The notes below the pieces were generated by a model. That model saw only the letters and a program-made list of their open reading frames with translations. It did not search any database and had not been told where the DNA came from. Below, in pieces: positions 61,284-64,000 of a stretch of 64,000 nt of DNA. Source of the stretch: Limnothrix sp. BL-A-16 (GTDB lineage Bacteria > Cyanobacteriota > Cyanobacteriia > CACIAM-69d); assembly GCA_041937175.2 (NCBI GenBank), contig CP166615.1, forward strand, positions 544,001 through 608,000. Reading direction: 5' to 3'. Numbering within the stretch: the first letter of the stretch is position 1; every line of letters begins with the position of its first letter. The position numbers were made by a program, and so were the translations under genes.

Positions 61284-61501
61284 GGGCTTACGGCCGCACG
61301 CCCTCCGGTGTCTGCTATGCCCGATCGCCCCGATCGGGTTGGTTTAGTGGGTTGCATTGTGCCCAATCAATGGGGCGAGGCCGGTTCGGCGATCCGCAAG
61401 TGGCTTCAGTACAATTGCAAGAAAATGTGAGGTGCGATCGCCCATGGCCCGCAACCAGCAGGGGTTGATCGCCCCAAGATCGCCCCAATCTAGGCAAGAC
61501 G

Positions 61502-61909
61502 ATGGAACCCACCACATTGGCATTGGCAGGTATCGCGGTTTTGATGGCCAAAAAGTCCGCAGAAACCGTCAGCGAGGTTGTAACGAAGGAGGCACTGGAG
61601 GCGACATTGCCAGCCCTGAAGGCCGTCGCGGGACAGTTGGCGGCTCCGCTGCGCGATCGGGTGGCGGCCTTGGGCGATCGGGTGGTGGCGCGGCTCCCGG
61701 CGGCCAATCTGGAAAATCCGTTCGATGATTTGGCGTTGTTGGAGGCGATCGTGGTGGAAGAGGCGGCCGATCCGGCAATGGCAGCCACGGTTGATGAGGT
61801 GGTGGCGGCGGTGGCTCCGATCATGCCTGCGATCACGATCGAAAACTGGAAAGGCATCAACGTCAAAGGCGGTCAGAATACGATCTCGGGCAACACCTTC
61901 CAATTTTGA
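61502..61909 (+). CDS. Small helical Bell/HeLo-like putative effector with C-terminal amyloid-like motif
   Basis: Hydrophobic N-terminal helix MEPTTLALAGIAVL; ~110-aa helical body; C-terminus ENWKGINVKGGQNTISGNTFQF. Confidence 0.72.
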   Translation: MEPTTLALAGIAVLMAKKSAETVSEVVTKEALEATLPALKAVAGQLAAPLRDRVAALGDRVVARLPAANLENPFDDLALLEAIVVEEAADPAMAATVDEVVAAVAPIMPAITIENWKGINVKGGQNTISGNTFQF

Positions 61910-61928
61910 AGCGGCGAGGGCGATGGAG

Positions 61929-62387
61929 ATGAGTGATCGAGCCATTACCTACGACAGCGACTTCTATGGCTGGGTGCAGCAACAAACGGCGCTGATTCGC
62001 CAAGGCCAGTGGAGCGAGCTGGACGCGCAGAATCTTTTGGAGGAGCTGGAAAGCTTGGGGCGATCGGAAAAGCGGGCGTTGATTAGCCAAGTGGCGCGGC
62101 TCTGTGCCCATCTGCTGAAGTGGCGCTATCAACCGGCCAAGCGCAGTCGATCGTGGGTGTTGAGCATTCGCAGTGCCCGCCAGGAAATTGCGGCGATTTT
62201 GCGCGATAACCCCAGTTTGCGCGCCAAGTTGCCGGAGGTGTTTGCGGATGGCTACGATCGCGGTCGGTTGATGGCCCTCGAAGAAACGGGCCTGGCCGAT
62301 CGCGAGATTCCCGAGGTTGCGCCCTTTGATTGGCAAACGGCGATCGAACAGCCGATCGATCTGAACTCCCCCACCGATGCCCCATGA
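61929..62387 (+). CDS. DUF29-family protein
   Basis: YDSDFYGWVQQQ, NLLEELESLGRSEKR, HLLKWRYQP, NPSLR; alternative start 61923. Confidence 0.9.
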   Translation: MSDRAITYDSDFYGWVQQQTALIRQGQWSELDAQNLLEELESLGRSEKRALISQVARLCAHLLKWRYQPAKRSRSWVLSIRSARQEIAAILRDNPSLRAKLPEVFADGYDRGRLMALEETGLADREIPEVAPFDWQTAIEQPIDLNSPTDAP

Positions 62388-64000
62388 GTGACCCGCAACA
62401 ACCGCAGGAAAATTGGCAAGGGTTGAATATCAAGGGCGGTACGAATGATATTCACGACAATGCGTTTAATCAAAACCATAGCGGCCCAGGCGATAACGTT
62501 GCGGGCGATAAGAATGTCACCGTCCAGCCCACAACCCAGCAAGGCAATGTCTTCGATGGCCAGTCGCAGGGGCATTTCTATGGCCCGGTGAATCAATATT
62601 TTGTGCCGCCGCCGCTGGAGCCGACGATCGATGGGCCGCCCAACAATCTGACGAAGTATGGTTTGTCGCCCGATCGCTTTGTGGGGCGGGCGGCGGACTT
62701 GGCGCGGTTGCATGGGCTGTTGCAGACCCAAACCCAAGTCGCCATTGCCGGGGTGAGTGGTCTGGGTGGCGTGGGCAAGAGCGAGCTGGCGTTGCAATAT
62801 GCGCGGGCGCACCTGGGCGACTATCCCGGCGGGGTGGTGTGGTTGCGGGCGGCGGCGGCCTGTGGGGAGTTGGTGGCCTTTGCCCAGCCCCGTTGGTTTG
62901 CCCAGGTGGATTTTACGCCGTTGGACACCCTGGAAAAGCAGGCGATCTTTTGCCAAGCCCATTGGCCCAACACGGCCCAGAATCCGCCGGGTCGGGTGTT
63001 GTTGATTTTGGATGATGTGACGGATTTTGGGGGGCAGGTGCAGGGGTTTCCAGTGGTGGGCGATCGGTTTCGGGTGCTGATCACCAGTCGGGAAAAATAT
63101 TTGCTCCCCGAGGCGCGGCTGGATTTGGAGGTGTTGGAACCAGCGGCGGCGTTGGCGTTGTTGAGCAATTTGGTGGGGGAAAGTCGGATCGCGGCGGAAT
63201 GGGCGACGGCGGAGAAGCTGTGCGAGTGGTTGGGTTATTTGCCCTTGGGGTTGGAGTTGGTGGGCAGCTATTTGGCGGCGGATCCAGAGTTGTCGTTGGC
63301 CAAAATGCAGCAGCGGTTGGAGCAGAAACGGTTGGCGGCCAAGGCGCTGACCCAAGTGCCCGCCACCACAACAGCCGAACGGGGTGTGGCGGCGGCCTTT
63401 GAGTTGAGTTGGCAAGCCTTGAGCGAGGAAGCACAACGGCTGGCGGTGTTGTTGGGTTGTTTTGGGCCGGCTCCGGTGTTGTGGGCTTGGGTGGAAGGCT
63501 GTTTGCCCAACGATGACGAGGAGGATTTGGAGGCGGCGCGGGCGGAGTTGGTGCGGTTGAGTTTGTTGGAGCGGCTGGGCGATCGGCAATATGGCTTGCA
63601 TCCGCTGATTCGGGAGTTTTTCGCGGCCAAGCTGATGGATCAGGCGGATAGCCTTGACCTCAAAATTGCTGTGGCTGGGGAATTGCTACGGGCAACGAAA
63701 TCGATCAGCCAAACCATGACCCTCGACCAAGTGCAGGATCTAGGAGCGGTGATTCCCCATGCTAGGGCCGTGGCCGAGTGGCCAGATCGAGCAGAAGCGA
63801 TCGCTGACTTACTCGCTCGGCTGAATAATCAACTGTGCTCGTTCTACTATTCCCAAGGGCTATTTAGTTTGGCGGAGGTTTGGGCCAAGCGATCGCTAGA
63901 AATTCATGAGCGATTGCTGGGAGCCGACCATCCCGACACCGCCACCAGCCTCAACAACTTGGCATACCTCTACTCATCCCAGGGACGGTACGAGGCAGCG
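62384..64000 (+). CDS. NLR: N-terminal amyloid-like motifs, NB-ARC and TPR (3' end runs off the window)
   Basis: Absent from the ORF track; hand translation: MSDPQQPQENWQG..., FVGR, Walker A GLGGVGKS, Walker B LLILDDV, VLITSR, LGYLPLGL, LHPLIRE, TPR GADHPDTATSLNNLAYLY. Confidence 0.9.
   Translation, partial: MSDPQQPQENWQGLNIKGGTNDIHDNAFNQNHSGPGDNVAGDKNVTVQPTTQQGNVFDGQSQGHFYGPVNQYFVPPPLEPTIDGPPNNLTKYGLSPDRFVGRAADLARLHGLLQTQTQVAIAGVSGLGGVGKSELALQYARAHLGDYPGGVVWLRAAAACGELVAFAQPRWFAQVDFTPLDTLEKQAIFCQAHWPNTAQNPPGRVLLILDDVTDFGGQVQGFPVVGDRFRVLITSREKYLLPEARLDLEVLEPAAALALLSNLVGESRIAAEWATAEKLCEWLGYLPLGLELVGSYLAADPELSLAKMQQRLEQKRLAAKALTQVPATTTAERGVAAAFELSWQALSEEAQRLAVLLGCFGPAPVLWAWVEGCLPNDDEEDLEAARAELVRLSLLERLGDRQYGLHPLIREFFAAKLMDQADSLDLKIAVAGELLRATKSISQTMTLDQVQDLGAVIPHARAVAEWPDRAEAIADLLARLNNQLCSFYYSQGLFSLAEVWAKRSLEIHERLLGADHPDTATSLNNLAYLYSSQGRYEAA

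Follow-up and report, generated by a model that had tools for sequence, protein, structure and literature searches.

Three putative amyloid-signalling modules arranged in tandem at the N-terminus of a cyanobacterial NLR-like receptor, with signs of cassette exchange between alleles

The 64,000-nucleotide stretch of cyanobacterial DNA analyzed here (the window, G000:C1:544001-608000, from a host genome of 4.56 Mb with a G+C content of 55%) ends with three collinear genes, which encode a small effector, a DUF29 protein and a protein with NB-ARC and tetratricopeptide repeat (TPR) domains that resembles the NOD-like receptors (NLRs). Three short motifs of different families, named m1, m2 and m3, stand in tandem ahead of the NB-ARC domain of this receptor. 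They probably constitute an array of three independent amyloid-signalling modules, in which the working circuit is formed by m1 and the adjacent effector. The motifs, their family relations, the pairing of the genes, the mosaic structure of the receptors and their variants in natural populations were observed directly. Limnothrix is the name used in the sources for the closest named relatives of the proteins discussed. The features of the locus are as follows.

61502..61909, plus strand: effector gene, 135 aa (from the open reading frame (ORF) list; AlphaFold2 model available)
61841..61900, plus strand: effector copy of m1, ENWKGINVKGGQNTISGNTF, aa 114-133, two residues ahead of the stop codon
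61923..62387, plus strand: DUF29 gene between the effector and NLR genes (Pfam PF01724, E=5.5e-45)
62384..64000, plus strand: NLR-like gene (NB-ARC and TPR), continuing beyond the end of the window; 936 aa in the genome
62408..62467, plus strand: m1, aa 9-28, receptor-side motif of the BASS7 type (BASS, bacterial amyloid signalling sequence); its partner is the adjacent effector
62471..62518, plus strand: m2, aa 30-45, BASS11-like, consensus INQxHSGSGDNVAGDK
62537..62602, plus strand: m3, aa 52-73, member of the QQG...QxF family (profile E=3.1e-5)
62603..62647, plus strand: Pro-rich linker VPPPLEPTIDGPPNN, 3' border of the cassette region
62699..63337, plus strand: NB-ARC domain, aa 106-318 (Pfam PF00931, E=5.1e-10)

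The receptor was assigned to the STAND NTPases by its match to PF00931 (39.5 bits, cut-off 23.5) and by matches to TPR_10 and TPR_12 above their cut-offs. A Walker A sequence, GGVGKS, and an LLILDD stretch can be read directly in the protein. The start codon at 62384 is supported because it overlaps the stop codon of the upstream DUF29 gene (ATGA) and because the homologues start with MSD or MSE. Translation from this ATG gives exactly the three separable N/Q/G-rich segments (residues 9-28, 30-45 and 52-73) that an earlier note on this DNA had described, and they belong to different motif families. Asn, Gln and Gly account for 43.1% of residues 9-73 and for 14.6% of the remaining protein; the former value was reached by only 0.087% of 101,265 windows of 65 residues taken from the long open frames of the genome. 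The modules are approximately 16-22 residues long and are separated by spacers of 1 residue (m1 to m2) and 6 residues (m2 to m3). The linker VPPPLEPTIDGPPNN, between m3 and the NB-ARC domain, is kept in all alleles of the clade to which the window NLR belongs.

The pairing of m1 with the effector is the best-defined part of the system. The motif and the effector C-terminus are identical at 12 of 20 positions in an ungapped alignment (E=4.7e-4). Genome-wide motif searches were performed on the 88,765 six-frame ORFs of the window's genome, and the effector was the only non-self match to m1 below E=10, followed by a match at E=12. The two genes are collinear and 477 bp apart, with the DUF29 gene between them. 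The earlier note had claimed that only the first segment matches the adjacent effector and that no partner for the other two lies in the window; both statements were confirmed.

The published BASS data set (supplement of PMC8086366) includes a class C12, whose effector side resembles ...IENWKGINIKGGTNTISNNTLTFN and whose receptor side resembles MSENWHGINIKGGKNEIKGNTFIFN... in the listed entries. One C12 entry ends with GNTFQF, as the window effector does, and m1 fits the C12 pattern ENWxGINIKGGxNTIxxNTFxF in a comparison made by eye, without a profile score. Class C12 consists of entries s001-s017, s018 being absent, and its 17 entries match the stated size of BASS7. We equated C12 with BASS7 because this number, the order of the classes and the sizes of the remaining classes all fit BASS1-10. 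BASS7-10 are reported to be cyanobacteria-specific. The comparison set comprised 8 genomes of the family and 301 cyanobacterial genomes of the class, and a profile of m1 found the motif in 8 of the 301. In G195, G248 and G296 it forms classical pairs, in which an effector of approximately 130-150 aa ends with the motif and the adjacent NLR starts with one m1-type copy followed directly by a short linker. An effector with the m1 motif is also present in G223, where none was seen in the listed receptor frame. Outside the window's group, a single receptor motif is the rule.

The AlphaFold2 model of the effector (mean pLDDT 77.1, pTM 0.66) consists of a five-helix domain at residues 3-104 (helices 3-22, 29-43, 48-64, 73-88 and 91-104) and a tail, residues 111-135, which contains the motif and is predicted to be disordered (pLDDT <50). 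The N-terminus, MEPTTLALAGIAVLM, is a hydrophobic helix starting with MEP, and a MEP or MDP start was found in 11 of 14 aligned homologues; effector homologues are present in 14 of the 301 cyanobacterial genomes. Bab, Bell and Hell domains are described as having a conserved N-terminal 'MEPIS' region and a hydrophobic first helix, with a typical size of approximately 100 aa for the Bell domain (bioRxiv 10.1101/2024.11.07.622273). In its sequence and model, the effector shows these Bell features, namely an MEP-type hydrophobic N-terminal helix and a helical domain of approximately 100 aa. It matched no Pfam or NCBIfam family, and its model gave no significant fold match in Foldseek (best E=1.9, a plant Rx CC domain) or in the wide VIA-align search (best Z=4.9). 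A complex prediction for NLR residues 1-80 and effector residues 96-135 scored 0.02 against a mark of 0.34 and, having been made without controls, speaks neither for nor against binding. The DUF29 gene, which is translationally coupled to the NLR gene, could be a third component or a hitch-hiker. There are seven DUF29 copies in the window's genome. The DUF29-NLR junction of the window recurs in G001:C90, and a near-identical DUF29 gene is present at the G002:C33 locus.

The second line of evidence is the variation of the motif sets among closely related receptors. When the first 100 residues of the NLR were searched against 1.84 billion representatives, nine matches had E<=0.001. The top match, P0011 (5183 aa, 30 stretches), was rejected as a composition artefact, being a repeat protein rich in G, D, V and S; a 'shorter' word-index search found a sister NLR fragment only. 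The motif sets were compared among NLRs that share the linker ...LEPT(I/G)DGPPNN and, mostly, a closely similar NB-ARC domain. A fourth motif, QQGIVGNDSTTINIQTVEQRF (named m4), follows m2 in the NLR of G001:C60; m3 and m4 are variants at one position. The following sets were found.

m1+m2+m3: the window receptor; P0002
m3: P0003 / G002:C33; P0012; P0013
m2+m3: P0015; G003:C175
m2+m4: P0004 / P0010 / G001:C60; two in G004; a fragment in G005
m1+m4: P0005; P0006; P0018; G002:C18; P0016
m1+m4+m2: P0009 / G001:C90
variant m1 alone: P0007; P0008
m2 alone: two in G004; one in G248

The joints between these motifs are visible in the DNA. Starting at the QQG codons of m3, the window hardly differs from G002:C33 up to the end of the linker; upstream of these codons, the two are unrelated. 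Between the window and G001:C60, identity is approximately 94% across m2 to QQG, the sequences diverge in m3/m4, and they converge again at the linker. Over the 3' end of the DUF29 gene, the start codon and m1, the window resembles G001:C90 and G002:C18. The identity of the whole NLR to that of the window is 88% for G002:C33, 63% for G001:C60, 56% for G001:C90 and 41% for G002:C18. P0002 is approximately 96% identical over residues 1-104 and then approximately 30% identical through the NB-ARC part, which suggests that the triple block is portable between NB-ARC bodies. The sequence TMGDRIEQ ahead of the internal m2 of P0009 corresponds to the start (MGDRVEQ) of an m2-first allele.

Environmental sequences contain further variants. 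A 3.2-kb contig from sequencing run X4 has the same arrangement of effector gene, DUF29 gene and triple block as the window; it covers positions 61401-62703 with 25 differences and is unlike the window thereafter, as is P0002. In the lake-water metagenomes X1 and X2, contigs agree with the window from the first codon of m2 (62471) onward; ahead of it they read ...VEQTMGDRVE, which is the arrangement of m4 followed by m2. One X2 contig departs from the window within m2, at 62512. A joint of 62396 to 62608 in X1, which skips m1-m3, is only a hint, as it is seen in one contig with a 24-letter side. None of the sequencing runs contained half of the sampled words, and RNA runs contained small shares only.

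The proposal of cassette-like accretion at the 5' end, made in the earlier note, is well supported because mixed motif sets occur on near-identical NLRs, because DNA breakpoints lie at motif borders, and because metagenome contigs diverge at the start of m2. The modules would have been joined by recombination at their borders. In the simplest history, m3 would be the proximal and older module of the NLR body; an m3-type receptor would have gained m2 on its 5' side and later m1, along with the DUF29 junction, through recombination with NLR genes that are paralogous or allelic to it. Two other features were noted among these receptors. P0005, P0006 and P0018 have an extra basic domain of approximately 90 aa before m1+m4, and m1 is thus not always at the very N-terminus. 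P0016 (217 aa) starts with m1+m4, lacks an NB-ARC domain and continues into a charged, helical-looking region; it may be a truncated gene call or, alternatively, an instance of the motif pair on a different kind of protein.

m3 is a genuine pairing motif, in that members of its family, QQG...QxF, end effectors and begin NTPases; they follow the consensus QQG-[INV]-[VIN]-x-N-D ... [VI]-x-Q-x-F. The motif lies 1-2 residues before the end of six effectors and at the N-terminus of at least 10 NTPases. Adjacent effector/NTPase pairs that share it were found in G001, G002 and G073. The G002:C33 effector has the same helical domain as the window effector (67% identical) and ends with ...KAGMMFNDQSAPVFNAPITQNFSL, and the downstream NLR starts with MSDRSKI followed by m3 alone. 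The G001:C60 effector ends with ...QQGNVFNDQSAPVFNAPITQHFS and is adjacent to the NLR with m2 and m4. Two more adjacent pairs of an effector and a P-loop NTPase, with the motif on both partners, are encoded in G073, and an effector with a QQG...QxF tail stands alone in G003 and in G005. Among the BASS entries listed, QQGI, QQGN, VEQNF, VQNF, IANDQ and IANDN are absent, and TQNF occurs in one C03 (BASS3) entry; the QQG...QxF family is given no BASS number here. A profile built from 19 sequences of other genomes, with the window's own string left out, found a sole site in the window's genome, NLR residues 52-73 (E=3.1e-5; next, E=2.1). The best m3 match in a short BLAST search (13 residues, E=0.59), in a 154-aa frame without a known family, was not confirmed by the profile. 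At the codon level, m3 differs from the m3-only allele G002:C33 by one synonymous change, with 21 of 22 codons identical.

A profile search of the genome contigs with the effector alignment detected two loci only. The second effector homologue, at C1:895291-896820 (minus strand; L018), is approximately 80% identical to the sister effectors, and its effector part ends after ...INSKIDQQKTGVMFNN, the first third of an m3-type motif. From there, the 510-aa frame runs into the winged-helix/TPR part of an NLR, from which the P-loop region is missing; a frame change splits the TPR part further. A long open frame on the same strand lies directly upstream, as at G001:C60, where the open frame upstream of the pair has ABC-transporter ATPase motifs. 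Decay of a second effector/NLR pair is the simplest reading of this locus. No intact m3-type effector tail was found in the window's genome.

m2 is shared with proteins of other kinds. Its alignment (24 columns, ten instances) has the consensus xxINQxHSGSGDNVAGDKxV, in which Q, G, G, D, N and V are invariant. Besides the NLR, the window's genome encodes two further carriers (E=5.6e-6 and 7.1e-4), a leucine-rich repeat (LRR) protein at C1:825259-826599 and a pentapeptide-repeat membrane protein at C1:2137541-2139658, which are approximately 220 kb and 1.5 Mb distant from the NLR gene. Both carry m2 in the interior of the protein, with a helical tail of approximately 100 residues behind it. The LRR protein belongs to a tandem array of three paralogues (G000:C1:821914-826599, minus strand), of which only the third has m2 and a Gly/Ala-rich hydrophobic tail.

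Among the comparison genomes, the m2 motif was found in 33 of 301 cyanobacterial genomes. These include 6 of the 7 remaining family members, and G004 alone has eight copies. In the sister genus, m2 is the usual first motif of the NLRs, either by itself or ahead of m4 or m3. G003 encodes an EAD1 domain (Pfam E=2.8e-10) that leads into m2 and a stop codon, after which comes an NB-ARC protein. This was the only adjacent arrangement seen; no m2 partner was found in the window. Elsewhere, m2 precedes a conserved helical tail of approximately 90 aa, either in proteins of approximately 115 aa that start with the motif or near residue 505 of proteins of approximately 610 aa. A second type of tail among these proteins (L046-L071) ends in a hydrophobic stretch, and the small protein P0017 has three tandem m2 copies after an N-terminal membrane helix. 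The tails gave no Pfam match above the cut-offs, and in the Atlas they matched only hypothetical cyanobacterial clusters, plus a TCAD2 lead at 0.88.

A scan of the m2 instances against 18,950 NCBIfam models indicated two families and none beyond them. All ten instances matched NF047935 (antiphage_GapS6a; best E=3.1e-4) at the last 17 of 104 profile positions, and nine of the ten matched NF047936 (antiphage_GapS6b) at the first 17 of 1,089 positions. When the window's genome was scanned with GapS6a, the three m2 sites ranked first (E=4e-4, 8e-3 and 0.19), below the family cut-off. GAPS6 is described as an antiphage system of two genes, the second of which encodes a protein with TPR and PIN domains (bioRxiv 10.1101/2023.03.28.534373). 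According to the Bab preprint, BASS11 is an experimentally proven amyloid motif at residues 86-108 of the 109 in Bab and 2-25 of the 1094 in Agp, it also accompanies NB-ARC and EAD domains, and mutagenesis of Bab targeted Q92, D99 and N100 as key residues (bioRxiv 10.1101/2024.11.07.622273). The invariant Q, D and N of m2 fall at GapS6a profile positions 91, 98 and 99, and their spacing fits that of the Bab residues at an offset of 1, in a comparison made through the GapS6a profile. The Bab preprint (bioRxiv 10.1101/2024.11.07.622273) was found to contain no mention of GAPS. Taken through these profiles, m2 may be a relative of BASS11, a link that is well placed but weak.

Receptors and effectors appear to co-vary, although imperfectly. 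At G002:C33 (L023 1-125), the BASS7 effector has collapsed to a remnant in which residues 1-17 run directly into the motif region (MEPLAMGAGAIGVLMIK joined to TIETC-stop-GINVKGGQHTVSGNNFQF-stop, with an in-frame stop inside the motif). The order of genes there is the BASS7 remnant, DUF29, an intact m3-type effector, two small genes and the m3-only NLR. The only intact effector in G001, and likewise in G002, is of the m3 type; neither genome has a BASS7 effector in intact form. Orphan modules, that is, m1 in G001 and G002 and m3 in the window's genome, seem to be common and look conserved, which agrees with frequent exchange in a common pool or, alternatively, with a role in trans. The two small genes between the m3-type effector and the NLR (L002 840-1492) looked, by eye, like a candidate toxin-antitoxin-type pair.

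A circuit can be proposed because of the analogy with the work on BASS, HET-S/NWD2 and Bab/Agp. The three modules would be of the BASS7 (m1), BASS11-like (m2) and QQG...QxF (m3) types. Upon binding of a ligand, the NB-ARC/TPR protein would oligomerize, and the clustered m1 copies would fold into a cross-beta structure that serves as a template for the same motif on the effector tail. The N-terminal hydrophobic helix of the effector would then be released and damage the membrane, leading to cell death (abortive infection or regulated cell death). m3 would be intact but partnerless in this genome, its effector type being truncated elsewhere in it, and m2 would be intact with two non-NLR proteins as its only other carriers. 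Signalling to several effectors in this cell may be possible.

Several points weigh against this account. Amyloid formation, templating, attack on the membrane and any activity of m2 or m3 are steps that we infer. The assignment of C12 to BASS7 depends on the order and sizes of the classes, and that of the effector to a putative Bell domain on its MEP-hydrophobic start, its size, its helical model and its BASS7 tail. The m2-BASS11 link is weak, since the profile matches lie far below the family cut-offs even at the best E value (3.1e-4), and 5 of 14 control genomes also matched GapS6a at E<=1. GAPS6 and Bab/Agp would be the same kind of system because their sizes and domain contents agree in the preprint descriptions. 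Moreover, m1 is kept on the second NLRs of G001 and G002 without an intact BASS7 effector, under apparent purifying selection, and orphan modules may thus have a role beyond the one favoured here. Relative to the window, m1 has 9 synonymous and 4 non-synonymous codon differences of 20 in G001:C90, and 8 and 3, respectively, in G002:C18.

The alternatives differ mainly in what they assign to m2 and m3. In true multiplexing, m1 would fire the adjacent effector, m2 would recruit the LRR and pentapeptide-repeat carriers, and m3 would be kept for transferred effectors. We regard this as unlikely, though it draws on a range of observations. There are exactly two other m2 carriers in the genome, and in other cyanobacteria m2 stands directly ahead of the conserved helical tail, is repeated three times in P0017, and accompanies EAD1 just upstream of an NB-ARC gene in G003. 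Orphan m1 is conserved in G001 and G002, and in genus g2, where the effector is solitary and several unlinked NLRs have m2+m4, trans signalling looks normal. However, m2 is internal in both carriers, which lie far from the NLR gene, their tails have no Pfam match beyond the slight TCAD2 lead, and m3 has no intact partner in the genome. The earlier note had suggested a receptor wired to several distant effectors and a search of the genome for further carriers; the search succeeded in part, with two carriers for m2 and none for m3. For m2, the wiring suggestion is borne out only in part, since two carriers exist but have the motif in an internal position and are at most candidate effectors. For m3, the matching effector type does exist in sister genomes, but here it is cut after the first third of the motif.

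A broader version of this idea, which we consider somewhat less improbable but still tentative, is a combinatorial network. Mutually orthogonal modules would serve as barcodes on the receptors, with one receptor able to fire several effectors and one effector open to several receptors; recombination at module borders would rewire these links from strain to strain, and m2 with its helical tail would be a new effector type. It is rather improbable, in turn, that the modules form a composite core, stacking in cis as unlike rungs of one beta-solenoid that aids or controls the templating of the BASS7 effector and mirrors the two pseudorepeats of the HET-s effector with the roles reversed. The module length of about one rung, the short spacers and the effector-side pseudorepeats of BASS1, BASS6 and HET-s suit such a core, but the modules belong to different families, occur alone or in other orders and combinations on the same NLR body, and only one motif is present in three other BASS7 receptors. 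There is hardly any chance that m2 and m3 are an unconserved low-complexity linker without an identity of their own. Their N/Q/G-rich composition would allow it, and the N-termini of published BASS-bearing NLRs span 23-134 aa (median 70), so that extra sequence is common. Nevertheless, each motif is preserved as a unit of its own in various genomes and types of protein, and their DNA is nearly identical to that of the sister alleles. An absence of other carriers together with an unconserved linker, which the earlier note had named as evidence against its view, is clearly not what was found. The array of independent modules with m1 as the working one is preferred.

The closest known systems share parts of this architecture. 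In the HET-S/NWD2 system of Podospora, the N-terminal motif of the receptor templates the C-terminal motif of the effector, which has an N-terminal membrane-targeting helix. It differs from the window system in being fungal, in using another motif family and in having repeats of one kind on the effector side. The text available also mentions in passing a fungal NLR N-terminus with two amyloid-like motifs, which resembles the window receptor in having more than one motif; unlike here, no partners, allele series or recombination analysis are described in that text. EADs of NTPase conflict systems (Pfam EAD1, PF19955) are homotypic adaptors at NTPase N-termini that could likewise link unlinked partners, but they are folded helical domains, not short beta-arch motifs, and none is present in the window NLR.

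Bell/NLR BASS pairs (Dyrka et al., bioRxiv 10.1101/2020.01.06.895854; PMC8086366) share with the window a collinear, closely linked pair of a small helical effector and an NB-ARC/TPR protein, in which the C-terminus of the effector and the N-terminus of the receptor have a motif of approximately 20 residues in common. In the accessible text of that work, the effector side has two or three pseudorepeats of one motif and the NLR a single repeat (bioRxiv 10.1101/2020.01.06.895854). Thus, the published NLRs carry one motif, whereas the window receptor carries three motif families, and a DUF29 gene is inserted between the window pair. The abortive-infection system Bab/Agp of E. coli and GAPS6 of Vibrio GMT islands are alike in that m2 falls at the end of the GapS6a profile and the start of GapS6b, which are the BASS11 positions. 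However, the window NLR has no adjacent Bab-like partner, its m2 is the second of three modules and not terminal, and the likeness is weak and seen in profiles only. In literature searches on bacterial amyloid signalling, NLRs, Bell and BASS11, neither three motif families on one bacterial NLR nor cassette exchange between alleles was found to be described, although the bioRxiv supplements could bear on both.

One further observation on the host genome concerns the palindrome GCGATCGC, which occurs in 5,209 copies.

NLR-effector amyloid signalling has been known as a system of one motif and one pair. The window receptor naturally carries three motif families, and its sister alleles have one, two or three motifs on almost the same body, with matching and mismatched effectors. 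These alleles form a ready-made series in which the orthogonality of the motifs, the number of outputs per receptor and the rewiring of circuits in evolution could be studied. The distribution of m2 suggests a widespread cyanobacterial counterpart of the enterobacterial antiphage BASS11, and its profile matches suggest that GAPS6 and Bab/Agp may be one kind of system under two names. If the combinatorial network proves true, m2 would link NLRs to a large class of proteins composed of m2 and a helical tail.

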